64,000 bases of DNA from NCBI GenBank assembly GCA_963789825.1, contig CAWBME010000010.1:48788-112787 (forward strand), in the 5' to 3' direction. The translations under genes were made by a program, and so were the position numbers. Positions 1,643 through 43,926 of this stretch are shown here, one piece after another (the stretch's first letter is position 1; every line of letters begins with the position of its first letter). A model generated the notes under the pieces. That model worked only from the letters and a program-made list of their open reading frames with translations. It ran no database searches and was not told the origin of the DNA. This DNA comes from an uncultured Chloroflexia bacterium. Lineage in GTDB: Bacteria; Chloroflexota; Anaerolineae; Anaerolineales; E44-bin32.

Positions 1643-1679
1643 GCCTACCCCTCGTCCACCGGTCGGCCGTTCCCCAGGC

Positions 1680-15300: not shown

Positions 15301-15310
15301 TTCAGCTCCA

Positions 15311-17752: not shown

Positions 17753-17867
17753 CCCGCCAACGAAGACTGAGGGAAAAGGATCGCCGCCCGGCTCCGGCCG
17801 GCCGGCACTGGGCATGTAGACCATCATAAATCGAGCACGTCGCAAGTCGACCCTGCTGGAACTCCCC

Positions 17868-19630: not shown

Positions 19631-19657
19631 CTCCGCGCACGAATCCGCGCAACAGCC

Positions 19658-19685
19658 AAGGACCTGGGCGCGGCCCAGGTCCTTT
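19658..19685. terminator. Hairpin between the convergent GNAT and moaD genes
   Basis: AAGGACCTGGG...CCCAGGTCCTTT. Confidence 0.65.
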
Positions 19686-19738
19686 GATTCCCATGGCGTC
19701 TCGGGGCAGCCACGCCCGCTGGACTCGACTTCCGCCGT

Positions 19739-19984
19739 TCAGCCTCCCGACATGGCCGGCACCAGCCGAACCTGGTCGCCGGCGGCAAGCACGTGTTCGG
19801 GCTTGACGATGCGCCCATTCACGACCAGCAGGAGCGCATCCCCCGAGAGCGGGATGGCTGCGGCCTCGAGCAGGGTCTGCACGGTGGCCCCCTCGGGCAG
19901 GTCAACTTCCAGCCGGTCGACGATCCCCTCCGGCGTCTTGCGCCGCAGCACTGTATGCAGACGCACACTCACACGGATTGCCAC
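19739..19984 (-). CDS. MoaD/ThiS family sulfur carrier
   Basis: 81 aa, VNGR, C-terminal SGG. Confidence 0.9.
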   Translation of the reverse strand: MAIRVSVRLHTVLRRKTPEGIVDRLEVDLPEGATVQTLLEAAAIPLSGDALLLVVNGRIVKPEHVLAAGDQVRLVPAMSGG

Positions 19985-21683
19985 AGACCGTCCAGCTCGT
20001 CATCCGGGATGTCAAACACCGTGTCGTGCGGCGGGAGCGGCTCGGTGCGCATCCACTCCGGGATCCGATCATCGGCTGCCGTGAAGCCGGCAGCGTGGTT
20101 GAATTCGCGTTCCAGGCGCAGGGTCTGCCTGCCCAGGTCCTGCAGGATCTCCTCCCCGCCGTCCCAGCCGTAGCGCGCCTTGAGCAGCTCGCGGATCACC
20201 CCGGGCGCCTTGGCGAAGCCGAATCCGGCGAAGATGCAGGCGCCCAGGCAGTCGTAGCCTGCCATGTTGATCTGGACGCCGCGCGAAAGCTCCGCCTGTC
20301 CCTCCGGCTTGAGATGATCCACCTTGGCGCGCACTGTCAGGCCGGCGGTGTGGTCAGCGCCCTGGGGCGAGGTGGCGTAGGTGACACCCGTCCCCTTGAT
20401 CGCCCGCGGGTCGTAGGATGGCATCGACTGCCGCTTGACGACCGGAACGCGGCGGATGCCTAGCACTTGTCCGGCGGTCGCCGCTCCGCTCCCCAGCACA
20501 CGTCCCAGCGGCGTTCCGCGGCGGATCTCGTCGACCAGGCGCGAGGCGCCGGCGGCATCCCCGAACGCCATCAGCCCGGCCTCGGCGGCCACCCCCAGCG
20601 CGGCGCCGATCTCGATCGAGTCCAGCCCGAGGTCGTCGATGGCCGCATTGAGATGGGCGATCTGGTCGAGATCGCCGATCCCCAGGTTCGATCCGACCAG
20701 GCCGATCGTTTCGTATTCGAGCGGCGAGACGATCTTCTCGCCATCGGCGCTGCCGAAGACATTCGAGCTGCGAATGGTGCAGCCGGCCATGCAGGCGTGG
20801 CTGGTGTCGCTCGGCTTGCCGCGCTCGAGCAGCACATCGCGCATGTGCTCGCCGGTGATGCCCTCGATGCCCTCGAAGTGGCCGGTGGAGAAGTTACAGG
20901 TCGGCAGCGCGCCGAAGCCATCCACCATCGCCGCCAGCCCTGCCGTGCCGAAGTCACGGTAGATCGCCGTTTGCGGATGGGCCATGAGCTCCTGGGTGAA
21001 GCGCTTCTGGGCAGCCTTGAAGCCCTCGGCGTCATCCAGCGGCGGTTTCTCGCCCTGGCTGGCATCGATCACCACCGCCTTCAGCCGGCGCGCCCCATCA
21101 CCGCGCCCAAGCCGCCGCGGGCGTTGATGCGCGACGGCTCGTTGTCCTTGTCCAGATTCTGAATGCCGGCCGCTTGCAGGAGCCTCTCACCACCCGGGCC
21201 GATCAGCGCCAGGCCGACCTTCGGGCCGAAGCGCTCGAGCAGGTGATGTGCCGTCGCGTGGACGCCCAGCCCGGCAAGATCATCCGCCGGCTGCAGCTCC
21301 CCGCCCTGCGCCGTCAGGTGGAGCAGCCACCAGCCGCTCGAGAGAAGCGGGCCCTCCACGACCAGCGCCTTGACGCCCAGGTAGGCCAGCTTCAGTCCGG
21401 TCGATCCTCCGGCATTGCTCTCCTTGATGCCGCCGGTTAGCGGGCTTTTGCCTCCAACCGAGATCCGGTCGCAGGAGGACAGCATGTGGCCGACCAGCAG
21501 CCCCGAGGCCCACAGCAGCTTGTTGCCAGGACCCAGCGCATCACAGGCGGGATCGATCTCGTCGAGCAATGCCCGCGCGATCAACCCCCGCCCCCCGAGC
21601 CGCTCCCAACCCGCCGGCACAGGCTCGCGCCGGACGCTGCCCTCGGCCACATTGACTCGCCATACGCGCTCGTCCACGCTCAT
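19969..21683 (-). CDS. Aldehyde:ferredoxin oxidoreductase family protein 2 (frameshift near 21080)
   Basis: LGGRGL, KSPLTGGIKESNAGG, ARGGLGAVMG, EYET, GLDSIE, YDPR and GADH motifs. Confidence 0.92.
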
Positions 21684-21788
21684 TCCACCTCTCGCTACGC
21701 TTCACAAGGCGCTCAGCGCCGATCCCCCGCCCGCCGCACCCGGCTTGAGCCGGCCCCGGGCGCGTCATCGATCCGCGGTCAGGCTGGG

Positions 21789-23709
21789 CTAGCTCGGAAG
21801 CGAGGCGGATTCCTCGATCCACGACAGGCCCAGTCGCGACAGGGTCTCGCTCGTCGGGTTGCCGGTTTGCGAATCCCACTCTGCCTGCCGATAGTACTCT
21901 TCGAGCGCCGACTGGATCTCGTCGCGCGTCAGGCTGATCCCGGCCGTCGGTCCCTCGCCGCTGAGCGGCGTGTAGAACTTCTCGGGCAGCGTATCGGCGC
22001 GGCGATCGAGCCCCAGGCGGGCATTCATGGCGCGCATCATGTTGATGCGCCGCTCGCCGACCGCCATCAGTTCGTCCAGCGTGAAATCCTGCCAGCCCGT
22101 CGCCGCCCGGACGAAGTCGACCGTATCGGCCGGGCCATACAACGTCCACGCCGGCCCCCAGACAAACTGACACAAGCAGGCGCTGTCCAGGAACGAGTAG
22201 AACTGCTGCCCCTTGAGGGCAAAGCGCACCTTGTCCGGGCCCAGGGAGCGTGGCTCGATCGTCTTCTCGAAGCCCAGGTCCTTCAACCGTCCCATGTACA
22301 GGTCGGCCGCCCCGTCCTCGACCATCGGGTCATGCTCGGACGACTGATGATCGGCGCCGAACGGGTTGACGGCGTAGATCAGCCCCAGCGAGCGCTTGGA
22401 TTGCGGCATGTGAGCGGGAGCCTCGGCGCCCTTGACGGTGATCAAGTACTGCTGTCCCTTCCCGAGGATCTCCGCCGCCCTGCGCGAGCCATTGGCAAGC
22501 ACGTCACCGAACCCCTGCCGCTGGGCGATCATCTCGGTCAGACGCACCATTGCCTGCGCGTCGCCGAAGGGGGCGGCGAATCCAATGTCGGCTGCGGTCA
22601 AGACGCCGTTCGTGAAGCACTCCATTGCCCAGGCGACGGTGGCGCCGGTCCCGATGGTGTCCAGGCCGTAGACATTGCACAGCTGGTTGGCCAAGGCGAC
22701 GGCCTTCAGGTCCTTCACGCCGCAGTACGAGCCGAAGGTGGCGATGGTCTCATACTCCGGCCCGCCGAAGCGCTTCTCCACCGCCTGCTGCAGGAACTCG
22801 GCCTCGACCACCCGCTTGCAGCGCACGCGTGCAGGCATAGCAGGTGTCGTTCTCCTTCAAGAGGGTGTCGGCCAGTTTCTCGCCTGAGATGCTCTCGAAG
22901 TCCGCGAACTGGCCAGCGTTGTAGTTGAAGGTCGGCAGGCTGCCGATGTCGTTCTGGAAGACGACGACGCCGGCCGTGCCGTAGTCCCTCAGCCCCAGCA
23001 CATCGGCGTTGTTGGGCACCTCGGCCGCGCCCCACTTGGCCAGCTCGTTCAGCCTTGCCGGATCGCTCCAGGGCAGCTTCTTGCTCGACCCGCGCACGAC
23101 GACCGCCTTGAGGTTCTTCGATCCCATCACCGCGCCGAGGCCTGTGCGGCCGTTGGCCCGATTGTCCATGTTCATGATCGCGGCCAGGCGCACCAGCTTC
23201 TCGCCAGCCGGGCCGATCTGCGCGATCTCGATCTTGTCATCCTTCAGCTCAGCCTTGAGCAGGTCGGTCGCCTCGGCGGTGGTCTTGCCCCACAGATGAG
23301 TAGCCGGGCGCAGCTCGGCCTGACCGTCGTGCAGCCACAAGTACACCGGCTGGCTGGCCTTGCCGCGGATCACCAGCCCGTCGAACCCGGCGAAGCGCAT
23401 CTCGGCCGGGAAGAAACCGCCGCACTGGCTGTCGCCGATGCCGTCGGTGAGCGGAGAAATGGCATTGGCCGTCATGCGGCTCTGGCCGGAGATCGGTGCG
23501 CCGGTCAGCGCACTGACCATCATCGTCAGCACATTCTCCGGGCCCAGCGGGTCGACACGGCCCGGCAGGGCGCGCAGGATGTAGTACATCCCCATCGCCG
23601 AGCCGCCCAGGTACTTGCGGTAGAAGGCCTCCGTCGGCTGCTCGACCTCGAGCCGCCCCTCGGTCAGATCCACATGCAGGATTCGTCGTGCGAAACCCTC
23701 AGCCATCAC
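21789..23709 (-). CDS. Aldehyde:ferredoxin oxidoreductase family protein 1 (frameshift near 22830)
   Basis: YLGG, SPLT, GRTGLGAVMGSKNLKAV, CYAC...C, GPEYET, GLDTI and GADH motifs. Confidence 0.93.
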
Positions 23710-23718
23710 CCAGCCTCC

Positions 23719-25014
23719 TCAGGTCAATGCGGGAGCACGGACATCGGCCAGCGCCTCGTCCAATGCCGCAGCGAAGACACCCAGCCCATCGGCAATCTGC
23801 GCCCCGCTCACCATCAGCGGAGGGATGAAGCGGATCGCCTGATCATACGTCCCACAGGTCAAGAGCAGCAGATCCCGCTCGTACGCCCGTCGCATTGTGG
23901 CTTTGGCCAATTCGGTCCACGGCCGACCGTCCGGCGCGGTGAACTCGGCCGCCACCATCAGTCCGACGCCGCGCACGTCGCCGATCGCCGGCCGGGCAGT
24001 CTGCAGCTCGCGCAAGCCGTCGAGCAGCACCCCGCCCTGGGTAGCGGCGTTCTCCACCATCTTCTCCTGGCGGATCGCCTCGAGCGTCGCCACGGCCGCG
24101 GCGCAGGCGACGGCGTTGCCGCCAAAGGTGCCGCCGTGCGACCCCGGAATCCACTTCTCCATCAGCGAGCGGCGGGCGGCCAGCCCGGCCAGCGGCAGGC
24201 CGGAGGCAATGCCCTTGGCCATCACCAGGATGTCCGGAACCACGCCGGTGTGCTCGACGGCAAACCACTTCCCGGTGCGCCCGATGCCCGATTGGACTTC
24301 GTCGGCGATCAGCAGGATTCCGTGCGCATCGCACAGCTCACGCAGCGCCGGAAGGAAGTCGGGCGGTGGGACAACGTAGCCACCCTCTCCGAGGACAGGC
24401 TCGATCAGGATGGCTGCCGTCTCCTCGGGCGCCGTCTGCGACTTGAGCAGATGCTTCAGCTCATCCAGGCAGAAGCGAGAGGTGGTGGCAGCATCCCAGC
24501 CATAGCGGTAGGCGTAGGGATAAGGCGCCACGAACACCCCTCCCGTGAGCGGCTGGTAGCCGGCGCGATAGATGGTCTTGGAGGTGGTCATCGCCATGGT
24601 GGCATTGGTCCGGCCGTGGAACGACCCCTGAAAGACAATGATGTTCTGCCGCCGGGTGGCGTGGCGCGCCAGCTTGACCGCGCCTTCGATGACCTCCGCG
24701 CCCGAGTTGGTGAAGAAGAAGCTATCCAGCGGAGCAGGGACGACCTCCAGCAGCTCCTGCGCCAGGCGGAGCATCGGTTGATGGATGACGATGTTGGCCT
24801 GCCCGTGCAATAGCAGGGCCGCCTGCTCCTGGATGGCTTTCACCACGTGTGGGTGTGCGTGCCCGGTGCTGGTGACACCGATGCCGCAGGTGAAATCCAG
24901 GTAGCGGCGGCCATCCAGGTCGTACAGGTAGGCGCCTTCGCCGCGGGCGACGTGTAGCGTCCAGCTCCGGCTCCAGACGGGGGAGAGATGGTTGGTCGCG
25001 TCCGACACCGTCAT
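23719..25014 (-). CDS. Class III aminotransferase, GabT-like (4-aminobutyrate/5-aminovalerate)
   Basis: SGAEVIEGAVK, FHGRT, EPVLGEGG, DEVQSGIGRTG, MAKGIASG. Confidence 0.9.
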   Translation of the reverse strand: MTVSDATNHLSPVWSRSWTLHVARGEGAYLYDLDGRRYLDFTCGIGVTSTGHAHPHVVKAIQEQAALLLHGQANIVIHQPMLRLAQELLEVVPAPLDSFFFTNSGAEVIEGAVKLARHATRRQNIIVFQGSFHGRTNATMAMTTSKTIYRAGYQPLTGGVFVAPYPYAYRYGWDAATTSRFCLDELKHLLKSQTAPEETAAILIEPVLGEGGYVVPPPDFLPALRELCDAHGILLIADEVQSGIGRTGKWFAVEHTGVVPDILVMAKGIASGLPLAGLAARRSLMEKWIPGSHGGTFGGNAVACAAAVATLEAIRQEKMVENAATQGGVLLDGLRELQTARPAIGDVRGVGLMVAAEFTAPDGRPWTELAKATMRRAYERDLLLLTCGTYDQAIRFIPPLMVSGAQIADGLGVFAAALDEALADVRAPALT

Positions 25015-25144
25015 ACTTAACCTCCTGGACTACCCTGGGGCGCCCGCCGTCCCACGCCGGACGCTCGAACGGTCTGTGTTGGCAGCCGCCGGCTTCAGGT
25101 TCCCCCGTGCGGCGAGGAGAACGCCAGGGGGCATGCGCTACCCC

Positions 25145-25153
25145 ATGGTAGCA
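25145..25153 (-). promoter_or_regulatory. Possible internal extended -10 (TGCTACCAT) for gabT-aor-aor-moaD
   Basis: Lies in the 240-bp gap between mttB and the aminotransferase. Confidence 0.4.
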
Positions 25154-25256
25154 CGCCCCGCATCCTCCTTGAAGGAGGTTCGGCCTCATCCCGGCCTGTC
25201 CTGGTTCCCGCTCTCGGCCCTCCGGTATTCACCCGAGGCGCGGCGCACGGGCGCGG

Positions 25257-26699
25257 CTACATTTCTTCGGGAATCTCCAGATCTGCCCGCCGCAGGATGG
25301 CATGCAACTCACTGGCCACATCTTCGGGTATCGGATCGATGGGAGGTCCTTCCAGCACCTCCCTCACCCGCTCCCGAGCCTTCGAGTAGATCGATGGCCG
25401 CCCGGCGTCCACCCAGGCTTGGTATGGGCGGCGCTCCAGCAGGCGGGACAGGTAGAACTCGCCGCCGCGCGGCGCCTGGCGCGTGCTGCGCCGCTTGAGG
25501 AAGTGCCCGCCGGGGCCGACCTCGGCGATGTCGGCCAACAGATCGTGCTCCTGGTCGACCTCCACGCCCTGGCACAGCCGCCGGCACACCCGGCCGAGCT
25601 CCTCGTCGACGATCATCTGTTCGAGCGCCAATGCCTGGCTGCACTCGACCAGGCCGATGCCGATCACCATGTCGGAGCCGGCCAGGAACGGCGGGAGCAT
25701 CGAGGTCATCTTCTCCAGAACCGCCTGAGCCCCCGGCTCTTTGGCATCCGCCGAGCAGCCGGTCGAGGTCGAGGGCAGGTTGTAGTAGCGGCCCATGCGC
25801 GTCAGCGCCCCGGCCTGCAAGCCGGTCTCAGCGCCTCCGGCCAGGAAGCCACCGGTGCTGAAGTCGAGCACGCCGATGGCATTGGCGTAGACCATCGGTC
25901 GACCCGGATTCGCCAGCTGGAAGATCACGAATGCCGACAGCGCCTCGGCGTTCGCCAGGCAGATATTGGAGAACAGGCTGGCAGGTCCCGTGGTCCCCAC
26001 CACCGGCATCGGCATCACCATCACCGGCAGGTCGAACTCGCCCAACTCCAGGTAGGCGTCCAGCATCTGCCCGTCGTGCACCAGCGGCGCCACCGGGCAG
26101 TAGATCAGCGAGCAGATCTTGTGCGCGCGGATGGCATCTTCGCTTCCCTGGATCGCGCGCAGTCCCTCCACCAGGTAGGGCACTTGGTCGACCCGGTGGA
26201 GCTCGTGCTCGCCGTGCTTGGAGCAGAATTCGAGCATGGTGAAGAACTCATGCAGCGGCCGGGACTGGGCCGGCGCGTCGGAGGCGCAGGTCGGCGCCCA
26301 GGCCATCACTCCCATCTCCAGCGATTGGAGCACGCGCATGGCGTCGCGGATGTCGGCGGTCGTGCCATAGCGCCGCTCCCCGGTGGTGAAGTCGAGCGTG
26401 AACGCCGCGGTGCCGTCCATGCCGAAGTGGGTCGAGGGCGAGGGCAAGGGGTAGCTCAGGGTGGGATTGCGCGCCTCGAGCACGACTTGCGAGGGCGCCG
26501 TGCGCAGCGCCTGCTCGATCAACTCGCGCGGCAGTCTGGCGACACCGTCGTCGTCCGACACGGTCACGCCATGCGCCTGCAGAATCCCCGGTGCCCTCTG
26601 GCCGAGATAGCGCACGCCCACTTCGGAAAGGATCCGCAAGCTCACCTCATGGATGCGTTCCTGCTCTTCGGGTGACACCGGGCTTGCGGTCCATCTCAT
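25257..26699 (-). CDS. MttB-superfamily corrinoid methyltransferase (non-pyrrolysine)
   Basis: IHEVSLRILSEVGV, GTTGPASL, NAEAL, DAKEPGAQ, VGPGGHFL. Confidence 0.9.
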   Translation of the reverse strand: MRWTASPVSPEEQERIHEVSLRILSEVGVRYLGQRAPGILQAHGVTVSDDDGVARLPRELIEQALRTAPSQVVLEARNPTLSYPLPSPSTHFGMDGTAAFTLDFTTGERRYGTTADIRDAMRVLQSLEMGVMAWAPTCASDAPAQSRPLHEFFTMLEFCSKHGEHELHRVDQVPYLVEGLRAIQGSEDAIRAHKICSLIYCPVAPLVHDGQMLDAYLELGEFDLPVMVMPMPVVGTTGPASLFSNICLANAEALSAFVIFQLANPGRPMVYANAIGVLDFSTGGFLAGGAETGLQAGALTRMGRYYNLPSTSTGCSADAKEPGAQAVLEKMTSMLPPFLAGSDMVIGIGLVECSQALALEQMIVDEELGRVCRRLCQGVEVDQEHDLLADIAEVGPGGHFLKRRSTRQAPRGGEFYLSRLLERRPYQAWVDAGRPSIYSKARERVREVLEGPPIDPIPEDVASELHAILRRADLEIPEEM

Positions 26700-26727
26700 G
26701 CCAGGCCTCGCAGTCTTGCCAGGATGC

Positions 26728-28150
26728 CTAGGGGGTCGCCGCCTCGATCCGATCCAGCTCGCGCTCCACGCGTTCGTCGAGCGGCAGGGGCTGATGCTTC
26801 GCCAGAATCGTCCGGACGCGCTCGGTCAGTTGCCGCTCAAGGCTCGGGCGGTCCTGCTGCAACCAAGCCTCATACGTGCCATGGGTTCCCAGATCACTGA
26901 GGTACCACTCGCCGCGCCGAATGGAATCGCGCGTGCTGGGTTCCTTGAGGAAGTTGCTGCCCGGCTTAACGCCTTGCAGGACCTCGTCCAGCCAGTCCTC
27001 CGGCCTGCTGCCGATTCCCTGATGCAGGCGTCGGCAGCGGGAGAAGATCTCGATGTCCACCAGGATCTGCTCGAGGCAGAGCACGGTCGATCCCTCGAGC
27101 AGGCCGGGGCCGATCAGGATATCCGGCCAGGCCAGTCCCGGCAGGCTCCAGTTGAGTGCGCGCTCAACTCCGAGCTGCAGCCCGGGAATGTGCGCATCCG
27201 ATGCTCCCGCAGAGGCCTCGATGGGGAGCTGGTAGAACCGGCCCATCTCCGCCACCGCCGCCCCGAGCAAGGCATGCTCCACCTGCCCTCCCGTGTAGCG
27301 CCAGGTGCGGGGATTGACGGCCGCCGGAACCGGCGCGTACAGGCAGGGCGTGCCCGGCGCCGCTGCCTGGATCAGGCAGATCATGGCCAGCGTCTCGCTG
27401 TTGGCCACCACCAGCGTCGAGATCAGGCTGGCGGGCGCGCTGGCTCCCATCAGGGGCATCGGCATCACCGCCACCGGAATCTTCCACTCCGCCATCTCCA
27501 TCCAGCCATCGATCAATTCCCTGCCCAGCACCAGCGGCGAGAGCGGACACACCAGCAAGGAGAACGGATTGGCGCGCTGGATGGCCTCCCGGCTGCCGAA
27601 GACCACTTGCAGGATCTCGAGCAGAGTGCGTGCGGAGGCGGCGTCCAGCGCCAAGTCCTGGATGTGTTTCGAAAACGAGGCGAAGGCACGCCGCCAGTGG
27701 CGGACGGCGCTCATCGGCTCATTCTCCGGACCGGTCGGTTCGACCATGCACCAGTAGACGCCGACCGGGTCGAGAGCATCGATGAGCGTGGTGGCGGCTT
27801 GCCAATCCTCCCAGGTGCCGGGACGCCGCCGGCCGGTGGCCAGATCGAGCACCTGGGTCGCCCCCCCGTCGGCGCAGAGCGTGCACGCGCTGCCATCGAG
27901 CGTCAGCGTCCAGCCCGCGCGCCGCCCGCCCAGCGTGACGGTGCGCGGGGCCGTGCGCAGACTCGCCTCGATCAGCCCCCGGGGGAGATGCGCGCATCCG
28001 GAGGAGTCGAGCCGCGCCCCGGCCTCACGCCAGAAGCCGACGGGCCTGCTCATGGTCCACCCGCACGCCGGTCGTCTCGAGCAGGCGCAACGTCCGCTCG
28101 TGGACCTCCTCGCGTTCCTTCGCCGAGAGCACCGACAGCATCGGCTGCAT
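26728..28150 (-). CDS. MttB-superfamily methyltransferase (frameshift near the N-terminus)
   Basis: SPLVL, MGASAPASL, NSETLA, SDAH, KPGSNFL. Confidence 0.88.
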
Positions 28151-29122
28151 CTACGCCTCACCCACCTTGCGCAGCAGTTTGTGTGGATCGAGCGCGTCGC
28201 GCAAGCCATCGCCGATGTAGTTCACGGAGATGATCGTCAGGAAGATCATGATCCCCGGGAAGATCGCCAGCCACGGGTGGCGGGTCAGATGGTTCTGGGC
28301 GTCGCTCAGCAGGTTGCCCCAGCTCGGGATCGGCGGCTGGATGCCGAATCCGAGGAAGCTCAGGCCGGACTCCTCCATGATGGCATAGCCCACCACCAGC
28401 GTCGCCTCGACGATGATCGGTCCGACGGCATTGGGCAGGATGTGGCGGACCATCAACCGGGTGTTCGACGCCCCCAGGCAGCGCGAGGCGATGACGAAAT
28501 CCATATCGCGGATCGTCAGGTAGCTGGCGCGCACCAGGCGCGCAACCGTCATCCACGAGAGCACGCCGATCACCAGCGACACGGTCAGCACGCTGTTCGC
28601 GCTGAGCAGTGGGATCTGCACCTCGGTGAGCAAGGCGCTGAGCAGAATCAGGATCAAGAGCGACGGCAACGACAGGGCGGCATCGGTGAGCCGCATCAGC
28701 ACGCTCTCCACCCTGCCGCCGAAGTACCCGGCGGAAGCGCCGATCGGGATCCCGATCACCAGCGTGATCAGCATCACCAGCAAGCCCACCCGCAGGGAGA
28801 CCCGGCCGCCATACAGGATGCGCGTGAGCAGATCGCGCCCGAGCGAGTCGGTGCCCATCGGATGCTGCAGCGAGGGCGGCTCCAGCCGCGCCGACATGTC
28901 CGACGCCACCGGGCTGTACGGCGAGAGGGGAGCCAGCATCGCACTCAGGGTGATCAGAGACAGGACAATCACCCCCCAGCGTGCACCGGGGTGGTTGCGG
29001 AATCTCCGCCAGACCATCTGGCCCATGCTCTCCCCGGCGTCGCTTGCCGCCGGGCGAGCCAGCGCGCCGCGGCCGCTCCATGGGCTGTCGGCTTCCGGCT
29101 CACGCCCATCCCCGTCACTCAT
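28151..29122 (-). CDS. Opp/Dpp-type ABC permease (DppC-like)
   Basis: HPMGTDSLGRD, LSFLGFG, GDGLRDALDP. Confidence 0.93.
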   Translation of the reverse strand: MSDGDGREPEADSPWSGRGALARPAASDAGESMGQMVWRRFRNHPGARWGVIVLSLITLSAMLAPLSPYSPVASDMSARLEPPSLQHPMGTDSLGRDLLTRILYGGRVSLRVGLLVMLITLVIGIPIGASAGYFGGRVESVLMRLTDAALSLPSLLILILLSALLTEVQIPLLSANSVLTVSLVIGVLSWMTVARLVRASYLTIRDMDFVIASRCLGASNTRLMVRHILPNAVGPIIVEATLVVGYAIMEESGLSFLGFGIQPPIPSWGNLLSDAQNHLTRHPWLAIFPGIMIFLTIISVNYIGDGLRDALDPHKLLRKVGEA

Positions 29123-30159: not shown

Positions 30160-30226
30160 GCTCGCCCTCAGGGAGAGAGGCCGTTCGTGATCGACCCCCC
30201 TCCCCTGGTTCGCCTGCGACGGTCGA

Positions 30227-31945: not shown

Positions 31946-31986
31946 GGCTCCTCCTCCTTTGCGTGTCGGCAGCCGCCCGTCGGTAC

Positions 31987-33456: not shown

Positions 33457-33494
33457 GACGGCACCTCCTGCGAACCGGCGAGCAGGTCATCCGC

Positions 33495-34959: not shown

Positions 34960-35070
34960 GGCGTCAAGGCTCCTTGGCAGCAGGCGTCGGGCGGACGCGG
35001 CCGGCCCGACAGAATCGACGCGGACGGCTCCGGTCCTCCGAGGACCGAGGGTCGCCTCGGATGGAGGCGG

Positions 35071-35729
<659 letters not shown>

Positions 35730-35841
35730 GCCTCCTTGGCAAGCGATTGGACCGCTGGGGCCGGCGGCGCAGCGCGGTGCTTCCGGGGCCCTCCCCATGG
35801 GCCATGGATCGAGATCGCAATGGCGAAGCGGCGCCTCCCGA

Positions 35842-37152
35842 CTACAGCTTCTTCACGACCTCCGCCAGCTCGGTCAACGTCCGATCGATGTCCGCCGGCG
35901 AATGCGCCTCGCACAAGAACCACGGTTCCTTGCCGTCGATCTCGTACTCGATCCCCCGGGCGCGGATGCCGGCGTGGATCTTCTCGTACAGTCCCATGTC
36001 GGCGGCCGCCAGGTCGCGGTACTCGACCGGCGGCTTCTCCAGCCCGAGCACGAAGGAGAACATCGCCGGGACCCCGGTGAGCGTGTGGGGAATCCCCTTC
36101 TCGGTCAGGATCAGGTGAATGCCCTGCATCAGGCGCTTGCCCTGGGCGGCGATCGTCTTCAGCGCCGGGGTGGTCTGGAGCACTTCCAGCGTGGCCAGGG
36201 CTGCGGCCACGCCGGGCACATTGCTGCAGTAGGTTCCCCCGTGGGCCATGCGGCCGGGTTCGATCACGCTCATCACCGCCCGCGATCCGCCGACGGCCGC
36301 CAGCGGATAGCCGTTGGCCAGCGACTTGGCATACGTCATCAGGTCGCCGCGCACCTTGAAGTACTCGGTGGCGCCGCCGCGGGCGATGCGGAATCCGGTC
36401 TTGACTTCGTCCATGATCATCACGATGCCGAATTCGTCGCACAGCCGGCGGATGTGCCCCAGCCAGCCGCGCCTCGGCATGACGGTCGTCATATTGGCGG
36501 CGATCGGCTCGACCAGGATGGCGGCGATTTCCCCGTAGCGCGCCCGCACGGTCGCTTCGAGCATCTCGAAGTCGTTGTACGGCAGCATGATCACCAGGTC
36601 CTTGAGGCAGGCCGGCATGCCCGACGAGTTGGCGACCGGCGTCGGGCTGCGCCGCGAGCCCAGCGACCCGTAGGCGGTGTAGGCCGTCGACCACAGGGCG
36701 TAGTCGTAGAAGCCGTGGTAGGTCCCTTCGAACTTGACGATCTTCTCGCGGTTGGTGTGCGCCCGGGCGATGCGCAGCGCATGCATCGTCGCCTCGGTGC
36801 CGGAGTTGACGAAGCGCACCATCTCCACCCCGGGGCACATCGCCACCACTTTCTCGGCCAGCTCGACTTCCAGCAGATGACTGTGGGCGAACAAGGTTCC
36901 CTGGTCAATCGCCTCGTGCACTCGGGCATTCACCCGGGGGTCGGCGTGGCCGAGAATGATCGGGCCAAAGGCCATGCGGTAGTCGAGATAGCGATTGCCG
37001 TCGGCATCCCAGACATAGGCGCCCTCGCCGCGGGCGATCACCGGGGTTTCGTCTCCCCAGTAGCGGAAGTTGGAGCTCACCCCCCACGGCATGACTTTCT
37101 TGGCGCGGGCAAAGACCGCGCGCGTCTTGGATAGGTTCAATCCATCTGCCAT
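35842..37152 (-). CDS. Glutamate-1-semialdehyde-aminomutase-like class III PLP enzyme
   Basis: GVSSNFR, VRFVNSGTEATM, DEVKTGFR, YAKSLANGYP. Confidence 0.88.
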   Translation of the reverse strand: MADGLNLSKTRAVFARAKKVMPWGVSSNFRYWGDETPVIARGEGAYVWDADGNRYLDYRMAFGPIILGHADPRVNARVHEAIDQGTLFAHSHLLEVELAEKVVAMCPGVEMVRFVNSGTEATMHALRIARAHTNREKIVKFEGTYHGFYDYALWSTAYTAYGSLGSRRSPTPVANSSGMPACLKDLVIMLPYNDFEMLEATVRARYGEIAAILVEPIAANMTTVMPRRGWLGHIRRLCDEFGIVMIMDEVKTGFRIARGGATEYFKVRGDLMTYAKSLANGYPLAAVGGSRAVMSVIEPGRMAHGGTYCSNVPGVAAALATLEVLQTTPALKTIAAQGKRLMQGIHLILTEKGIPHTLTGVPAMFSFVLGLEKPPVEYRDLAAADMGLYEKIHAGIRARGIEYEIDGKEPWFLCEAHSPADIDRTLTELAEVVKKL

Positions 37153-37162
37153 GCCTTCCTCC

Positions 37163-38505
37163 TCAGCCGCAGCTGCCTATCCGGCGGTCGCCGCCCGAAT
37201 CGCGTTCTCGATGATCTTCAGCCCGTGCAACAACTCGTCGCGAGTGATACACAGCGGCGGGCAGGCAAAGACCAGGTTCTTGTTGACAAACGTCGACAGG
37301 CCGTCCTGGAGAAGCCGCGTCTTGATCTTCCCCATCGTCGGAGCGTCCAGCGGCGCGCGGGTCGTCCGATCCGATGACGAGCTCGAGCACGGAGAACAGC
37401 CCGATCCCGCGCACGTCGCCCACCACCGGCAGACGCGGCTTGGATCGCCCGCAGTTCCTCCAGCAGCACCTCGCCCATGCGGCGGCTGTTCTCGATCAGG
37501 TTCTCCTGCTCATACACCTCGAGCGTCGCCAGGCCGGCGGCGCACGACATCGGGTGGCCGTAGTAGGTCAGGCCCAGGTAGAGCACCCGCTCGTCGAAGT
37601 GGCGGGCGATGGCCTCCGAGACCACCACGCCGCCCAAGCGGCAGGTAGCCGGAGGTCACGCCCTTGGCGATGGTCATGATGTCGGGCACGACGTCCCAGT
37701 GATCGACGGCGAACCACTTGCCGGTGCGCCCGAAGCCGCTCATCACCTCGTCCGAGATCAGCAGCACGCCGTACTTGCGGGTGATCTCGCGCAGGCGCGG
37801 CCAGTAGTCATCCGGCGGCACCAGGATGCCGTTCGAGCCGGTGACGCCTTCCATGATCAGGGCGGCGACGGTCTCGGGCCCTTCGTACTGGATCATCTGC
37901 TCGATGTGGGTGATGCACTCCCGATGACAGGTCTGCGGGGTGTAGCCGAACACGCAGCGATAGCAGTACGGATCGAAGCAATGCACGACGCCGGGGATGC
38001 CAGGCTCGACCGGCGGCCGGCGGTAGTCGCCGCTCAAGGTGATGGCGCCATAGGTCGCGCCGTGATACGAGACGTAGCGCGCCAGGATCTTGTGCCGTCC
38101 GGTAAACAACCGGGCGAACTTGATGGCGTTCTCGTTGGCCTCGGCGCCGCCCAGGGTGAAGAAGACCTTGTTCAGGTCGCCGGGCGCAAGCTGGGCAATC
38201 CGCTCGGCCAGGCGCGCCTTGGGCTCATGCGCCGCGCTGGGATGGGCGGCGCACAGCCTCGCCGCCTGCTCCTGGATCGCCGCCACGACCTTCGGGTGCT
38301 GGTAGCCGATGTTGAGATTCATCAGCTGGGACGAGAAATCCAGATAGCGCTTGCCGTCGGCGTCCCAGAAGGTGATGCCCTCACCGCCGACGACGGGGAT
38401 CGGATCGACGGCATTCTGGGCCGACCACGAGAAGAAGGCGTACTGCTTGTTGAGCCGTACGATCTCCTGCGCGCTCAGGCCTGACGGCGTGATGGTTTGG
38501 GACAT
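37163..38505 (-). CDS. Class III omega-aminotransferase (frameshifted C-terminus)
   Basis: DFSSQLMN, GAEANENAIK, SYHGAT, DEVMSGFGRTG, IAKGVTSGY. Confidence 0.9.
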
Positions 38506-38630
38506 GCGATCCTCCTGAGCCTACTGCCGGCCAGCGCCGGTCCGACCCCAACCCGAGGCCCCCCGGCAAACGGCGTGCTTCCTGGCTGAGCCCGGTTCTC
38601 CGTCCCTCCACCGGCGGCAAGGGCCTCGGG

Positions 38631-40014
38631 TCATAGACTTTGTTGAACCGAAGCCAATGTGTCGGTCAGCCGGTTAAGCACCTCGTCGAGCAGGTCATAT
38701 TCGATGACCAACGGGGGCTCAATGCGCACGGTGTGCGCGCTGGTGAGCGTACCGGCCACCAGCACACCGCGCTTGAATAGCCCGGCAGCCACCTTGTAGC
38801 CGATCTCAGGATCCTGGAAGTGCATGCCGATCAGCAGGCCCTTGCCGGTGATGCCGTTGGCGCCGTAGTGCGGATCGTAGATCTGCGGGTACTTGCCCGC
38901 CAGCTCAATCAGCTTGGGCATCAGATAGTCGCCCTTGGCGGCGGCCTGCTCCCACAGCCGATCGCGCAGCAAGACATTGATCGAAGCGATGGCCGCGCTG
39001 CACGCCAGCGGATTCCCACCCGTGGTTGTGGTGTGGATGAACGGGTTGGGATACATCATCACTTGCCAGATTTCCTCGGTCGAGCAGAAGGCGCTCACCG
39101 GCATCACCCCGCCGCCCAGCGCCTTGGCCACGCCCAGGATGTCGGGCACCACGCCCCAGTGGTCCAACCCCCACAGCTTGCCGGTGCGGCCCATGCCGGT
39201 CTGGACTTCGTCGGCGATCAGCAGCACGCCATAGTGCTTGGTCAGCTCGCGCACGCGTGGCCAGAAGTCGTCCGGCGGGACGATCCCGCCGGCCTCGCCC
39301 TGGATCGGCTCCATCAGCACCGCGGCGATGTCGATGCCGACCTTCTGGCAGATATCCAGCTGCTGCTCGACCGCGTCGGCGTCGCCGAAGGGGACGTGGT
39401 AGACCGGGCCGCCGTAGAGCACGCCGGGCGGCTGAGCGGTAGTCCGCCTTGCCCATCATGCTCAGCGAGCCCATCGTCTTGCCGTGGAAGGCCTTGAGGG
39501 CGACGATGAAGCCGGCCTTGCGGGTGTACATCTTGGCGAGCTTGATCGTGCCTTCCATGGCCTCGGTGCCGCTGGCGCAAAAGAAGGAGTAGCGGATGTC
39601 GCCGGGGGTGATCTCGGCCATCAGGCGTGCCAGCACGCCCGCGCAGCGGGTCGATCAGCTCCTGGCTCGGCATCGGCGTGCGCAGGGTGAGCTGCGCCTT
39701 GACGGCGTCCACGACGTCGGGATGCGACCAGCCGTGGGCCAGCAGGCCGTAGCCGCCCAGGCAGTCGATGTACTTCGCGGCCGAGGACGTCCTCGAACAT
39801 GGCGCCCGGAACCGGTCCACTCGGTGGCCGCCCAGTCTCCGGCCTCGGTCACCGACTTGCGGTACTCCAGCCAGCCCTTGTTGAAGTAGTCGGCGAAGTT
39901 GGCCTTGGACTCTTCGATGATCGCCTTGCCTTCCGTCTCCGAGAGGCCTAGGCTTGTGCAGGATCTCAATCCAGCGCGACGAGTACTCAGGGCCTTGTCG
40001 AGGGACTGAGGCAT
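38631..40014 (-). CDS. Putrescine aminotransferase-like protein (PatA/YgjG type), frameshifted
   Basis: LEYRKSVT, IDCLGGYG, FHGKTMGSLS, VPFGD, NPFIHTTT, VLVAGTL...RIEPPL, all recognisably PatA-like. Confidence 0.85.
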
Positions 40015-40101
40015 GGCAGCTCTCCTTGCTTGCTGAGGGAGAGCCATGCCCGGCGCCTGGCGGGCCTCCGGGCATGGTTCCAACCCTCGTGCTACGGCAG
40101 A

Positions 40102-41310
40102 TTACATCTCCCGGATGCCGTACGGGAAGTCGTACTTCGGCATGCGTTCCAGGAAGGGATCCGGGTCGAAGGCTTCCGGCCCGAGCACACCCTTGCCTGT
40201 CCAGATGCCGTGCTGCAGCAGATCCCAGGCGATCACCGGATTGACCGCCGTCTGCCAGACCACCGCCTGCACACCGTACTTCTTCATGCAGGTCTCGTTG
40301 TCGGCCACCTGATAGAGATACACCTGGCGCGGCTTGCCGTTCTTCTTGCCCTTGACCCAGGTGCCGGCGCAGGTCTTGCCAAACATCCGGTCGCCGAGAT
40401 GCGCCGGATCGGGCAGGCAGGCCGCCACGACATCGCGCGGGGCAACCTTGACCGCCCTCACCTGGATCGGGTTCTTGTTGTCCAGGCCGAGCATCTTGAG
40501 CGTCTTGAGCACACGGATGAAGTCTTCGCCCGAGCCCGTACTTGAACGTCACGCGCTTGCACTTCACCCAGCGCGGCACCAGCAGCACCTCTTCGTGCTC
40601 GACGTTGACGCACTCCTGCTTGCCCGATGCCCTCGGGGAACTCGAAGATCTCCGGTTCGGAGAACGGCTGCGGTGGTGTACCAGCCGCGGTCTTTCTCCC
40701 AGATGACCGGCGGGTTGAGGCACTCTTCGATCGTCGTCCAGATCGAGAAGTTGGGGGCGAACTCGTAGCCGCGCACTTCCAGGTTGGCGCCGTCGCGAAC
40801 GCCGATCTCGTCGATCTCGTCGAAGAGGTGCTTCTCGGCATACTTGGCAAAGACGTCGGCCATGCCGGGCTCGACGCCCATCCCCAGCAACGCCAGCCGC
40901 CCCTTCTTCTCCCACTTCTCGGCGCGCTCGAACTGGTAGTCGCCCAGCTTGACGCCGCGCTTCTCGAACGGCTTCTGCGGATGCGGCGTCGAGAGCGTCA
41001 TCGCCATATCCATGTAGGTGCAGCCGTAGCGGAAGGCGGCGTCGAAGATCTGTTCGTTGAACAACGGCTCGACGGCGTTCATGATCAGGTCGACCTTGTG
41101 CTTCTTGGCCAGCTCGACGATCTGGCTGCGGGTTCTGGCGTCGATCTGCTCCACCGGGAACTTCTTCGGCTGGCGCAGCTTGGCCTTGACCTCTCGGCAG
41201 CGCTTGGGATTGATGTCGCACAACACGATCTTCTCGACCCAGGGCTTGTCCTGGGCGATCACGGCGATCGACTCGCCGACGCCCCCCACCCCGACCAACA
41301 GGACTCGCAT
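40102..41310 (-). CDS. Saccharopine dehydrogenase / carboxy(nor)spermidine dehydrogenase-like oxidoreductase (frameshifted)
   Basis: GVGGVG Rossmann fold, YMDMA, GMGVEPG, HEEV, GVLGPEAFDPDPFL. Confidence 0.85.
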
Positions 41311-41331
41311 GCTAGCCTCCTTCCACTCTGC

Positions 41332-42920
41332 TTAGAGCGGTTCTGCCCCTTCGGATTCGTAGGGATTGATGTCCGGCACACCGCGCTTGAGATAGCGTTT
41401 GATCGGGAAGTACAGAATGGCGCCCAGCAGAATCGCCACCAGCGCCAGCCACAAAGACGTCAACCCTTCCTCGACCACCTGTGAGTAGATCGCCAGCAGG
41501 ATGATGAACGTCGGCCCCAAGGTGATCAGGAACAGGCCGAAGTAGCCACCGGGGACCTTCATGCGCGGCACATCCGGCTTGGTGAAGCGCAGCTTCCACA
41601 GCGCAGCGAACTCGGCCAGGATCACCAGCGTCTGCAGGAACACGTCCACCACGACCAGGACGGCGAAGGCACTCAAGGCGAAGACACTGAAGATCACTCC
41701 GCAGAAGATGATCGCCACCCAGGGTGTGCCGTAGCGCGGATGGACGTGCACCAACCAGCGCGGCATCATGCCGTCCTCGGCCAGGGCGAAGGGGACGCGC
41801 GTGCCTCCCAGGCTGTTCCCGATGAACAGCCCGATCATGCTGAGCACCGCCGCCAGGGTGATCGTGACGCCCAGCGCCCTCGGCCAGGGGCTCTCCGGTC
41901 CGGCCAGGACCTCGCCCAGCCGTTGGCCGATATCCGGGAATTCCCATCCGACGGGGCTGCCTGGATCGACTCCCCAGGCTTCCATCTGCTCGGCCGTGAC
42001 CCCGTACTCCTCCAGCACGACCCCGATCCCTTCCCCGTCTTCGTATTCCTCGATGCCCCAGAGATGATGACGGCCGTCCTCCCCTGCACCCCCGTACAGT
42101 CCGGCCACGGTTGGGCCGGCATAGGTCAGGATCGCCGCCACCAGGACGAGCGCCATCGCCCGCGGATAGGTCTTGCGCGGATTGACGATCTCATCGCCGG
42201 CCGCCGCCGGCAGCTCCCAGCCCATGTAGTTCCACATCACGACGAACAGCCCCACGCTGAAGGCGCCAATCATCAACTCGCCCTCGGGGAGCATGGGGAG
42301 CGAGATCGTGACCCCGCCGCGGATCCAGTTGTAGAAGCCCACGATGGTCATCAACACCAGGGGCGCCATCATGACGACCGACATCCAGGCGGTGGTCAGC
42401 CCGGCCAGGCGCGCCCCGCGCACTTGCAGCCAGGTGATCAACCAGATCAGGACGGCTGCCACCAACCACGAAAGGAAGTTGGCCGAGAGCTCGGTCCCGC
42501 CGATCGTCGTCCCCTCGCGCAGCGCAGGAATGAAGAACCCCAGGTAGTAGGCGGCCAGCACGGGATAGATGGCCACATCCACCCAGGACACGACCCAGTT
42601 CATCCAACCGGCCAGGAATCCGCAAAGCCGCCGAAAGCCTGCTTGATCCAGTGGTAGTAGCCGCCTTCGACGGGCATCATCGAGTTCAGCTCACGCACCA
42701 TCAGCATGTTGGGAAGGCTGAAGATGAGCGGCGTGATCACGATCAGCACCAGGGCCAGCCCCGGCCCCGACCAGCCGACCAGCGGCTCGATCCCGAACGA
42801 ACCGCCGCACACGGTGAAGTAGATCAGACCGAAGAGCGGAAGAAGGGTGAGCTCACGCTTCAATCGCTTGCGTTCTTGCTTGATCTCGACTGCTGCGGAC
42901 GATTCCGGTGTCGTCGACAT
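41332..42920 (-). CDS. APC-superfamily permease, polyamine-transporter-like (one frameshift near 42620)
   Basis: GGSFGIE, GGYYHWI, WNYMGWE, YPRA, HPRYGTPW. Confidence 0.9.
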
Positions 42921-43015
42921 CGGACTTCTCCTCCTCGGATGGATGGAATGCCCCCGGAATGGGTGAGCGGAATCAAGCGACAGCTGCCGAGCGGGTCAAT
43001 CGCCTGCTGCCTCCT

Positions 43016-43606
43016 TCACTCCCTTGCCCGCCCTCGAGGGGACATGGGCAGGCCCGTGGCGGGATGATGCCTACCGCCGGACACGTGCCAGCGCCGGGTG
43101 CACGGTCCAGTTCCTCCCTCAGGGCTCGGCTCGGCATTGCCCCAGGACGCCCTGGGCACGCGCCACTGATAGACGTCCTTCAGGATCACCGGAACGATGA
43201 CCGTCGTCGTCTTGCGCACTCCCGGCAACCGACCGATCACGTCCGTGACGAACGCATACACCTCGCGATTGTCGTGGCCGACGACCTGCACGCTGATATC
43301 GCTTTCGCCCATCGAGCAGCCGACATAGGTCACGCTCTCGAAGGTCGCCAGTCGCTCGGCGACCGAGGAGATGCTTCCCGGCTCGACCTGAATGAACACG
43401 TCGGCGACGACGGTGTACCCCAGCCGAGACGGAATGGGCATGGCGACGACGCGGATCAAGCCCTGTTCGAGCAGACGCTGCAAGCGGTAGCGCGCGGTAC
43501 GCTCGGAGACGCCCAGTGCGCGCGCCAACGCCGCCGACGACAATCGGCCATCCTGCATCAGGTGTTCGATCAGTTGGACGTCGAGGCTGTCAAGGGGAGA
43601 CGGCAT
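43016..43606 (-). CDS. Lrp/AsnC family regulator
   Basis: LDSLDVQLIEHLMQDGRLS...GVSERTARYRLQRL plus a RAM-like domain. Confidence 0.92.
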   Translation of the reverse strand: MPSPLDSLDVQLIEHLMQDGRLSSAALARALGVSERTARYRLQRLLEQGLIRVVAMPIPSRLGYTVVADVFIQVEPGSISSVAERLATFESVTYVGCSMGESDISVQVVGHDNREVYAFVTDVIGRLPGVRKTTTVIVPVILKDVYQWRVPRASWGNAEPSPEGGTGPCTRRWHVSGGRHHPATGLPMSPRGRARE

Positions 43607-43633
43607 CCGGTGGTCCGCTTGCCGACTGTTACC

Positions 43634-43757
43634 AATCTAGTGGGGAAACCGTCCCGAGTCAACCATCCTGTGGTACTTCATGTCGCTTTGCCCCGTTCTG
43701 CGGGGCCGGCATGCCGTTATCGGCAACTTGCTCTTCAGGAGTGGATTTGGCCAAATC
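43634..43757 (-). promoter_or_regulatory. Cluster promoter TTGACT-17-TAGATT with upstream palindromes
   Basis: -10 at 43634-39, -35 at 43657-62; TGCCG-N4-CGGCA at 43712-25; GATTTGGCCAAATC at 43744-57. Confidence 0.6.
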
Positions 43758-43926
43758 GGATCGTGGGGCCAGACGGAGACCAGACCGCCGGTCCAGCGCC
43801 GAGCAGGGACCATGCCCGCCGGCGCGGCCCGGGAGCCCCTGCCTCACGGCGAGCTGATGCCGGGCGGTGTGTTATGCTGGCCGGCAAGCCCGCCAGCAGG
43901 ACCCGCCGGCGCAGGCGCACTATCCT

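Follow-up and report, generated by a model that had tools for sequence, protein, structure and literature searches.

This study concerns a cluster of 18 genes in a stretch of 64,000 nucleotides (the window; G+C content, 67%) from an uncultured Chloroflexia bacterium of the order Anaerolineales (GenBank assembly GCA_963789825.1, contig CAWBME010000010.1, positions 48,788 to 112,787 of the forward strand), whose genome (G000) comprises 3.35 Mb on 13 contigs. Genes were located by third-position GC content and Pfam matches, and the members of the cluster are co-oriented, occupying the minus strand from 19739 to 43636 (Pfam E-values of 1e-11 to 1e-127). An initial annotation made from the sequence alone had proposed that these genes encode a corrinoid-dependent pathway for methylated polyamines or diamines, and all 18 were found in the order that it had given. 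Read along the minus strand, the first half comprises an Lrp/AsnC regulator, an APC permease, an enzyme with Sacchrp_dh_NADP and Sacchrp_dh_C domains, three class-III aminotransferases (AT1 to AT3), a B12-binding protein, and two MTTB proteins; the second half comprises an SBP_bac_5 protein, two BPD_transp_1 permeases, two further MTTB proteins, a fourth class-III aminotransferase, two proteins with AFOR_N and AFOR_C domains, and a ThiS/MoaD protein. The order is syntenic with that in three genomes of the same genus (G001 to G003) and is therefore not due to chance.

The cluster is made up of two modules. Module A consists of the Lrp regulator, the APC permease, a carboxyspermidine-dehydrogenase-like enzyme, the four class-III aminotransferases, two aldehyde:ferredoxin oxidoreductases (AORs), and the MoaD-like protein. 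Module B consists of the corrinoid protein, four MttB paralogs, and a Dpp-type ABC importer, and it lies between AT3 and the GabT-like gene.

Genes of Module A

The first gene of the cluster encodes an Lrp/AsnC-family regulator (43016 to 43636; AsnC_trans_reg, 1.5e-12; HTH_AsnC-type, 3.4e-12) that aligns at 78 to 85% with the intact orthologs of G001 to G003. It is followed by an APC-superfamily amino acid/polyamine permease (41332 to 42995), which a 1-base deletion near 42622 splits into the frames 42600 to 42995 and 41332 to 42690, both matching AA_permease_2. The dehydrogenase (40102 to 41331; Sacchrp_dh_NADP and Sacchrp_dh_C) contains 1-base insertions near 40530, 40623, and 40670, so that about 47 codons are garbled, two TGA among them; it is 83% identical over 408 amino acids to the intact G001 ortholog. 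That ortholog scores 218 bits on NF043000 (carboxynorspermidine synthase), under the cut-off of 800, and the solved relatives of the enzyme (E < 0.001) are 8deb, a carboxyspermidine dehydrogenase, and 4ina, 4rl6, and 8h4z, which were deposited as "saccharopine dehydrogenase". The initial annotation had called this enzyme saccharopine-dehydrogenase-like; its domains, like its nearest solved structures, are consistent with the carboxy(nor)spermidine dehydrogenase fold, and it is nearest to carboxyspermidine dehydrogenases and not to the enzymes of the lysine pathway.

Scores on NCBIfam models, here as above, were taken on open genes or intact orthologs. AT1 (38631 to 40060; Aminotran_3, profile positions 182 to 403) is PatA-like, its intact G002 ortholog scoring 568.6 bits on the putrescine aminotransferase model PRK11522 (cut-off, 612); the C-terminal half of the gene is open (38631 to 39455), and the N-terminal half carries five 1-base insertions and one deletion. 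AT2 (37195 to 38553; Aminotran_3, 3.3e-67) is an omega-aminotransferase of the PRK06062 subfamily (NF004718; 549 bits for the G002 ortholog; cut-off, 472) that tblastn recovers in four frames, with 1-base insertions near 37375, 37436, and 37634, and AT3 (35842 to 37152; Aminotran_3, 2.5e-65) is an open GSA-aminomutase/GntE-like gene (NF041362; 571.7 bits; cut-off, 525). The fourth aminotransferase, also open, is GabT-like (23719 to 25014; Aminotran_3, 1.6e-127), with 534 bits on PRK08117 (cut-off, 574) and 403 bits on GABAtrnsam. Both AOR genes carry the AFOR_N and AFOR_C domains: AOR-1 (21789 to 23718; AFOR_N, 5.4e-74; AFOR_C, 1.4e-96) is split into two pieces by a 1-base insertion at 22828, and AOR-2 (19969 to 21689; AFOR_N, 1.1e-46; AFOR_C, 1.6e-64) by a 1-base deletion at 21094. 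The nearest solved structure to AOR-1, judged on the intact G002 ortholog, is the Pyrococcus AOR 1aor (365 bits). The last gene of the cluster encodes the small ThiS/MoaD-like protein (19739 to 19984; ThiS, 1.1e-11), a homolog of which also follows AOR-2 in genomes G286 and G154.

Genes of Module B

The corrinoid protein (35071 to 35730, start approximate; B12-binding, 3.1e-12) is of the type cognate to methyltransferases. Its gene lies in three frames, the pieces of which (35612 to 35439, 35440 to 35321, and 35322 to 35074) match the G001 ortholog at 84 to 88%, and the homolog in G008, a genome of the same family, has B12-binding and B12-binding_2 domains and, with 230 bits, exceeds the TIGR02370 cut-off of 215. 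All four MttB genes match PF06253 (MTTB), in pieces scoring 33 to 263 bits against a cut-off of 25. MttB-1 (33495 to 35070) lies in two frames (profile positions 23 to 141 and 160 to 499), and MttB-2 (31987 to 33460) lies in at least three (91 to 366 and 385 to 490, with a further piece at 26 to 91) and is 70% identical over 293 amino acids to the G008 protein of its clade (type a, below). MttB-3 (26728 to 28209; MTTB, 9.9e-57) and MttB-4 (25257 to 26699; MTTB, 2.9e-78) are open and of the non-pyrrolysine kind, and MttB-4 lies directly upstream of the GabT-like gene. Between the two MttB pairs lies the importer, made up of a Dpp/Opp-type solute-binding protein (30227 to 32030; SBP_bac_5, profile positions 11 to 166 and 167 to 365 in two frames), a DppB-like permease 1 (29115 to 30261; BPD_transp_1_N and BPD_transp_1 on three pieces in three frames), and an open DppC-like permease 2 (28151 to 29122; OppC_N; BPD_transp_1, 7e-32).

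The window genome has seven MTTB genes, of which four are those of the cluster; the other three fall outside the four clades described below, on long branches. MT2 and RamA are not encoded in the cluster. Contig C4 carries a Pterin_bind gene (13878 to 14549) and a RamA gene (RACo_C_ter, 18081 to 18908), together with another MttB and another corrinoid protein, and a second RamA gene is on contig C1; candidate partners for methyl transfer and for corrinoid reactivation therefore exist in the genome outside the cluster.

Frame breaks in the assembly

Frameshifts or in-frame stops occur in 11 of the 18 genes (the APC permease, the dehydrogenase, AT1, AT2, the corrinoid protein, MttB-1, MttB-2, the solute-binding protein, permease 1, AOR-1, and AOR-2), and the remaining 7 are open. 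Such a count could indicate a cluster of decaying pseudogenes that has no present function. The orthologs in the three same-genus genomes are, however, open and full-length; tblastn with those orthologs maps each frame change, and nucleotide alignment shows that each break is the gain or loss of one base at a position on which all relatives agree (for example, at 39433, 39638, 39775, 39806, 39949, 39988, and, among those already named, 40530, 40623, 40670, and 42622, as well as 37375, 37436, 37634, 22828, and 21094). The same assembly breaks rpoB and rpoC in the same manner, rpoB into open frames of 864 and 542 amino acids and rpoC into open frames of 1048, 174, and 692 amino acids. That both are frame-split shows that indel errors occur throughout this assembly, and every gene call of the window needs to be read with that caution. 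The two genes lie on different contigs (C7:159980-163757 and C6:74380-78518).

Contigs from three other public runs, compared over the region 19700 to 39699, lack the indels at no fewer than 12 places, including 39433 and 39638, those in the solute-binding protein gene at 31944 to 31985, and those in the permease 1 gene at 29400, 29548, and 29573. These contigs also bridge the internal junctions of the insert formed by Module B and its junction with AT3 (AT3-corrinoid protein), so that chimeric joining in this assembly does not explain the gene order. A third-position GC content of 0.77 to 0.89 is maintained in all gene pieces. Because the relatives are open, rpoB and rpoC are broken alike, and the contigs of other runs lack the indels at the places named, we conclude that the breaks are assembly indel errors and that the genes are, on this comparison of sequences, intact and presumably functional in the organism; we rejected decay into pseudogenes as very improbable.

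Contigs of the RNA library X19 match parts of both modules at 90 to 99% likeness, one of them spanning the MttB-3/MttB-4 junction; they possibly derive from relatives, and as contigs they cannot show transcription or strand. Over 32373 to 34373, which covers parts of MttB-2 and MttB-1, the summed depth of the X1 and X2 contigs is far below that of the rest of the cluster. This could reflect strain variants that lack MttB-1 and MttB-2 or an effect of filtering, between which contigs cannot decide.

Conservation of Module A

Of the 401 genomes sampled from the order, 110 have a match to the dehydrogenase at an E-value of 1e-90 or lower, among them 42 of 48 in family f14, 29 of 48 in f16, 20 of 23 in f9, and 8 of 48 in f1. 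By identity, the matches divide into class I (66 to 91%), to which the dehydrogenase of the window belongs, and class II (54 to 62%). Among 12 class-I loci, which were picked for long contigs and not at random, a PatA-like gene was present at 9, a GabT-like gene at 8, an AOR at 7, and a Pot-type importer at 5, and no labeled gene was present at 2. The importer at one of these loci (L090) includes a PotA with 382 bits on TIGR01187 (cut-off, 356) and three genes whose best matches are PotB, PotC, and PotD. Homologs of PotA, PotB, PotC, and PotD do not occur in the window, where the cluster has the APC permease instead.

In G017, which belongs to another genus of the same family, the same gene set surrounds further genes, including those for an SSF transporter, an agmatine deiminase (TIGR03380; 584 bits; cut-off, 382), a putrescine carbamoyltransferase (TIGR04384; 521.7 bits; cut-off, 500), and a coenzyme A (CoA)-acylating (methyl)malonate-semialdehyde dehydrogenase (523.6 bits; cut-off, 448.5). 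G286 likewise adds an agmatine deiminase, a putrescine carbamoyltransferase, and a CoA-acylating dehydrogenase of the malonate-semialdehyde type, again with scores over the respective cut-offs. Because agmatine deiminase, putrescine carbamoyltransferase, and a PotABCD-type importer accompany it elsewhere, Module A can be read as an operon for the utilization of polyamines, agmatine, or putrescine. The amine part of the initial annotation, which had assigned the aminotransferases, AORs, and dehydrogenase to diamine and polyamine breakdown, is borne out by the same evidence: judged by its gene content, Module A is a predicted polyamine/diamine catabolic operon conserved across Anaerolineales.

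Within that operon the dehydrogenase probably works in the direction of cleavage, as it lies beside importers, aminotransferases, and AORs. No carboxyspermidine decarboxylase turned up at the annotated loci, although no search aimed at one was made. We infer the cleavage of the C-N bond by the dehydrogenase and the oxidation of aldehydes by the AORs from the chemistry of their families and from the presence of the malonate-semialdehyde-type enzyme.

In two genomes of genus g82 (L100, G236:C10; L101, G278:C23), a class-II dehydrogenase forms a trio with an Lrp regulator and an APC permease in which MttB genes are absent, and an MttB-4 ortholog stands alone elsewhere in the genome.

Distribution of the MttB arrays

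We compared 34 other loci with an MttB-4 gene (16 plus 20, less two duplicates), which were labeled by tblastn with proteins of the window and its relatives. Of the 34, 22 are arrays of two or more MttB types (all four types at 14, three at 6, and two at 2), and MttB-4 is the sole MttB type at the other 12. The 22 arrays include a Dpp-type importer in 14 cases, a Pot-type importer in 6, and a corrinoid gene in view in 7; at 8 of them the first gene encodes a class-II paralog of the dehydrogenase (54 to 62% identical). The solute-binding protein of the Pot-linked arrays has PotD as its best match (164 bits, below the cut-off).

In a FastTree phylogeny of 110 MttB rows, four clades are recovered, each with 100% FastTree local support: type 4 (34 rows), type 3 (24 rows and 5 from Actinomycetota), type a (14 rows), and type b (23 rows). 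Types a and b are sisters, as are types 3 and 4. MttB-1 belongs to type b, MttB-2 to type a, and MttB-3 to type 3, and MttB-4 groups with the G001 and G286 proteins in type 4.

Two loci carry further genes near their MttBs. L014 (G008:C22:44000-63900), in the family of the window, has 9 or more MttB homologs within 20 kb, a corrinoid protein, and a Dpp-type importer, with a ferredoxin and an AOR between MttB genes, so that an AOR is tied to MttBs there at a place where no aminotransferase is present. L023, a Pot-linked array, is adjoined, at 14865 to 18482 and 490 to 1704 (both on the minus strand), by a 1205-amino-acid fusion of Aminotran_1_2 and PEPcase_2, two AlaDh_PNT_N proteins, and a DUF1638 protein.

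Substrate pocket of the MttB proteins

The account of the glycine betaine enzyme MtgB (PMC13080624) gives Y97 and F356 as cation-pi contacts to the quaternary nitrogen and H348 and R312 as contacts to the carboxylate; R312 is described there as conserved in all MttB members of known function, the substrates of which are all acidic. These positions were located by pairwise HMMER alignment, in which the chain index equals the numbering of the paper minus 2, as checked on all four residues. At the Y97, R312, H348, and F356 columns MttB-4 has T, T, G, and S, with S at the pyrrolysine column, and at the R312 column MttB-3 has Glu and type b has Leu. The multiple alignment extends this to the clades: no Arg occurs at the R312 column in any of the four, the residues being T/S/G/A in type 4, E/Q/T/I in type 3 (Glu in 16 of 24 rows), and L/M in types a and b. 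The Y97 column holds T in type 4, G/E/A/S in type 3, and C in types a and b, and the F356 column holds D/S in type 4 (Asp in 31 of 34 rows), S/A in type 3, C in type a, and Y in type b, which is the only type to keep one aromatic residue.

Pyrrolysine is likewise absent. At the Pyl334 column, type 4 has T, V, S, or A and the other three types have G, and all types score below the TIGR02369 (pyrrolysine MttB) cut-off of 525 bits, type 4 with 344, type 3 with 269, type a with 323, and type b with 339. Among solved structures the four types score 130 to 203 bits, the pyrrolysine MttB of Methanosarcina barkeri ranking first and MtgB second. The in-frame stop of a Bacillota homolog (L035) was considered as a pyrrolysine codon and rejected, as it reflects a frame change and not a single UAG.

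Because the carboxylate-binding Arg is lost, the four MttBs do not look like the characterized group with acidic substrates, and we read this as evidence that their substrates may lack the acidic group of the known substrates, which would fit a cationic amine. The initial annotation had allowed that the proteins might fall in characterized betaine or carnitine clades; the residues argue otherwise, in a comparison that covers the solved MtgB and MttB.

A zwitterionic substrate would read the same genes differently. A methylated basic amino acid, such as N-trimethyl-lysine, N-trimethyl-ornithine, or a peptide with one of them, would enter through the Dpp-type importer, be demethylated by the MttBs, and be broken down by the dehydrogenase and aminotransferases via 5-aminovalerate or γ-aminobutyrate. 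The binding protein does belong to the peptide/opine family SBP_bac_5, the class-III aminotransferases include ornithine and lysine enzymes, the dehydrogenase has saccharopine-dehydrogenase domains, and AlaDh_PNT_N proteins occur near one array (L023). All four clades, however, lack the Arg that binds the acidic group, one of the four solved relatives of the dehydrogenase is named a carboxyspermidine dehydrogenase (the other three carrying the saccharopine name), and six arrays have Pot-type importers. We consider a basic amino acid an unlikely substrate and favor a non-acidic, cationic methylated amine.

A proposed pathway and the possible coupling of the modules

Considered together, these findings are consistent with an amine-catabolic operon of two modules in which the demethylated product of Module B feeds Module A, a reading that we think has an even chance of being correct. 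The chemical steps and the coupling between the modules are what we infer from gene families and gene order. In such a pathway the APC permease would import the amine, a task that the PotABCD importer or an SSF transporter would perform in relatives. The four anciently diverged MttB paralogs would act on a cationic methylated amine that has no acidic group and transfer its N-methyl groups to the corrinoid protein, from which the pterin-binding methyltransferase would pass them on to tetrahydrofolate while RamA would keep the corrinoid reduced (both encoded on C4). The demethylated amine, produced from a methylated diamine or polyamine or from something closely analogous, would then enter Module A. 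There, the dehydrogenase would cleave a spermidine-type polyamine at its secondary amine, giving a diamine and an amino-aldehyde; the four aminotransferases (PatA-like, omega-type, GSA/GntE-like, and GabT-like) would remove the primary amino groups; and the two AORs, with ferredoxin as the acceptor, would oxidize the aldehydes, yielding dicarboxylates and omega-amino acids. The Lrp protein would regulate the operon, and the MoaD-like protein would serve the pterin cofactor.

In the broader form of this reading, methylated amines that carry a positive charge may be the substrates of the MttB enzymes, and no such class has so far been described for the MttB family. The more specific proposal, that the four MttBs demethylate N-methylated or N-trimethylated amines of the putrescine, cadaverine, and spermidine types and thereby feed an undescribed anaerobic polyamine route through the dehydrogenase, the four aminotransferases, and the AORs, is tentative, and we would sooner expect it to need revision than to stand as worded.

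Three hints link Module B to polyamine-like cations, namely the occurrence of Pot importers at six arrays, that of the dehydrogenase paralog at eight, and the loss of the Arg. Indirect support for a coupling of MttB with polyamine catabolism also comes from the position of the corrinoid protein-MttB-4 pair, which occupies the same slot, before the GabT-like and AOR genes and inside the operon, in G000, G001, and G286, representing two genera, with MttB-4 identities of 66 to 85% among the three. In G286, where the operon can be seen in full, spacers of 50 to 180 bases surround the pair. The link between MttBs and polyamines made by the initial annotation is thus supported indirectly, by this slot, the importers, the dehydrogenase paralogs, and the altered pocket; its own ground for refutation, an absence of conserved linkage to the aminotransferases, applies in part, as that linkage proved to be rare. 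Overall, the hypothesis of the initial annotation has partial support.

Several observations weigh against the coupling. Only 2 of the 34 other MttB-4 loci (G001 and G286, both of the window's own family) sit among aminotransferases, so that this linkage is limited to one family, and no class-III aminotransferase or AOR was found within about 11 kb of any of the 22 arrays. Module A occurs in a form that lacks any MttB in G002 and G003, two of the three same-genus genomes, and in G017. The dehydrogenase at the arrays is a paralog and not the enzyme of Module A; the eight arrays that have it come from one genus, and the six Pot-linked arrays come from one or two lineages. Where MttB-4 is the sole type, neither a corrinoid protein nor an amine gene is in view at 10 of the 12 loci, and ten neighboring genes annotated at three of these (L073, L074, and L079) are unrelated, such as a YchF GTPase, GntR, Band 7, GGDEF, TrkA, and a DAO oxidase. 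SBP_bac_5 proteins are associated with peptides, opines, and nickel complexes and not with polyamines. The residues of the pocket were mapped at about 25 to 30% identity, anchored by conserved motifs, and pairwise for types 4, 3, and b. Moreover, characterized non-pyrrolysine MttBs take one methyl group off a quaternary amine, and we know of no precedent for full demethylation to a primary amine by such enzymes.

These observations could also be accommodated if the modules were merely adjacent, Module B having been acquired independently for an unrelated quaternary amine (choline-like, tetramethylammonium, or another non-acidic onium compound) whose product bypasses Module A. The distribution of MttB-4 is patchy (orthologs at an E-value of 1e-120 or lower in 26 of the 401 genomes, G000 counted) and lies mostly in another family, 17 of 48 genomes in f16 against 2 of the 48 other genomes in the family of the window; the type-b and type-3 proteins of G000 have their closest relatives in other lineages, suggesting transfer; the arrays stand on their own at 22 of 34 loci; and on each side of the insert there is a gap of about 230 bases. 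Mere adjacency would not account as readily for the slot upstream of the GabT-like gene in two genera, with its short spacers in G286, or for the recurrence of Pot-type importers and of a paralog of the Module A dehydrogenase at the arrays. In addition, no terminator-like site lies at either junction, although the scan concerned (19500 to 39400) is uninformative, since its counts, 0 promoter-like sites and 1 terminator-like site, inside MttB-3, are both under the shuffle means. We regard an unrelated acquisition as the less likely reading.

The two modules are thus each conserved, separately, and Module B is an insertion in Module A. With regard to the conservation that the initial annotation proposed to examine, the modules hold up individually, and the placement of MttB genes inside Module A is, among the loci compared, confined to the family of the window.

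The component families are all known; what is new is their arrangement, the set of four paralogs, and the altered pocket. In titles and abstracts we found no report linking MttB enzymes to polyamines, nor one of a carboxyspermidine dehydrogenase homolog or of AORs in polyamine breakdown. If the more specific proposal above is correct, non-pyrrolysine MttB enzymes would gain a first substrate class that is not acidic, and B12-dependent methylotrophy would for the first time be connected with polyamine catabolism. For thousands of MttB-family genes in anaerobes the substrate is not known, and a conserved Arg-less set of four paralogs that occurs with importers and a dehydrogenase of polyamine type names a concrete, testable new substrate class. 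Module A, which dehydrogenase matches place in roughly one in four of the Anaerolineales sampled (110 of 401), suggests anaerobic polyamine breakdown by abundant sediment and soil fermenters, with a dehydrogenase homolog acting in the cleavage direction and ferredoxin-dependent AORs.

Flanking genes

Divergent from the Lrp gene, a gene for an S-adenosylmethionine-dependent methyltransferase (43858 to 44496, plus strand; Methyltransf_11, 3.2e-17) is kept in G001, G002, and G017. Past the MoaD end of the cluster, at 17820 to 19630 on the plus strand, lie an ATP-grasp D-Ala-D-Ala-ligase-like gene and a GNAT acetyltransferase gene; adjoining a polyamine operon, the latter could be a candidate polyamine acetyltransferase. 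Rfam matches in the window are limited to two tRNA genes, at 11640 to 11711 (plus strand) and 51399 to 51473 (minus strand).

Comparison with known systems

Module B shares with the MtgB-MtgC-MtgA system of Desulfitobacterium hafniense and with MtcB, MtpB, MtyB, and MthB of Eubacterium limosum the placement of a non-pyrrolysine MttB-fold enzyme next to a corrinoid protein, and its genome also encodes, outside the cluster, a pterin-binding methyltransferase and a RamA-type activator that may serve it. It differs from those systems in that four distinct paralog clades are kept as a set and in that the importers are of the Dpp or Pot type, no betaine-type binding protein having been seen at the annotated loci. 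Compared with MtgB itself, the MttBs of the window types score only 130 to 173 bits, and R312 and most of the other contacts to glycine betaine are replaced. The pyrrolysine MttB of M. barkeri (7xcl/7xcm) is the best solved relative of types 4, 3, and b (133 to 203 bits) and, like them, has no Arg at the R312 column; unlike it, types 4, 3, a, and b lack pyrrolysine and remain under the TIGR02369 cut-off.

Module A resembles the aminotransferase pathway by which Escherichia coli breaks down putrescine, from PatA and PatD to GabT and GabD, in that PatA-like and GabT-like aminotransferases, aldehyde-oxidizing enzymes, and a polyamine importer occur in one cluster. In contrast to that pathway, the aldehyde-oxidizing enzymes are ferredoxin-dependent AORs, to which some relatives add a CoA-acylating semialdehyde dehydrogenase, and the core also includes two more aminotransferases and a carboxyspermidine-dehydrogenase-like enzyme. 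The dehydrogenase has the same two-domain architecture as carboxy(nor)spermidine dehydrogenase (8deb; NF043000), which is among its closest solved relatives; unlike the biosynthetic enzyme, it scores 218 bits against the cut-off of 800 and is found with importers, aminotransferases, and AORs. The AORs themselves match the tungsten AORs of Pyrococcus furiosus (1aor) and Aromatoleum (8c0z) in combining AFOR_N with AFOR_C, and they differ from them in occurring as two tandem paralogs, together with a MoaD-like gene, inside an amine operon.

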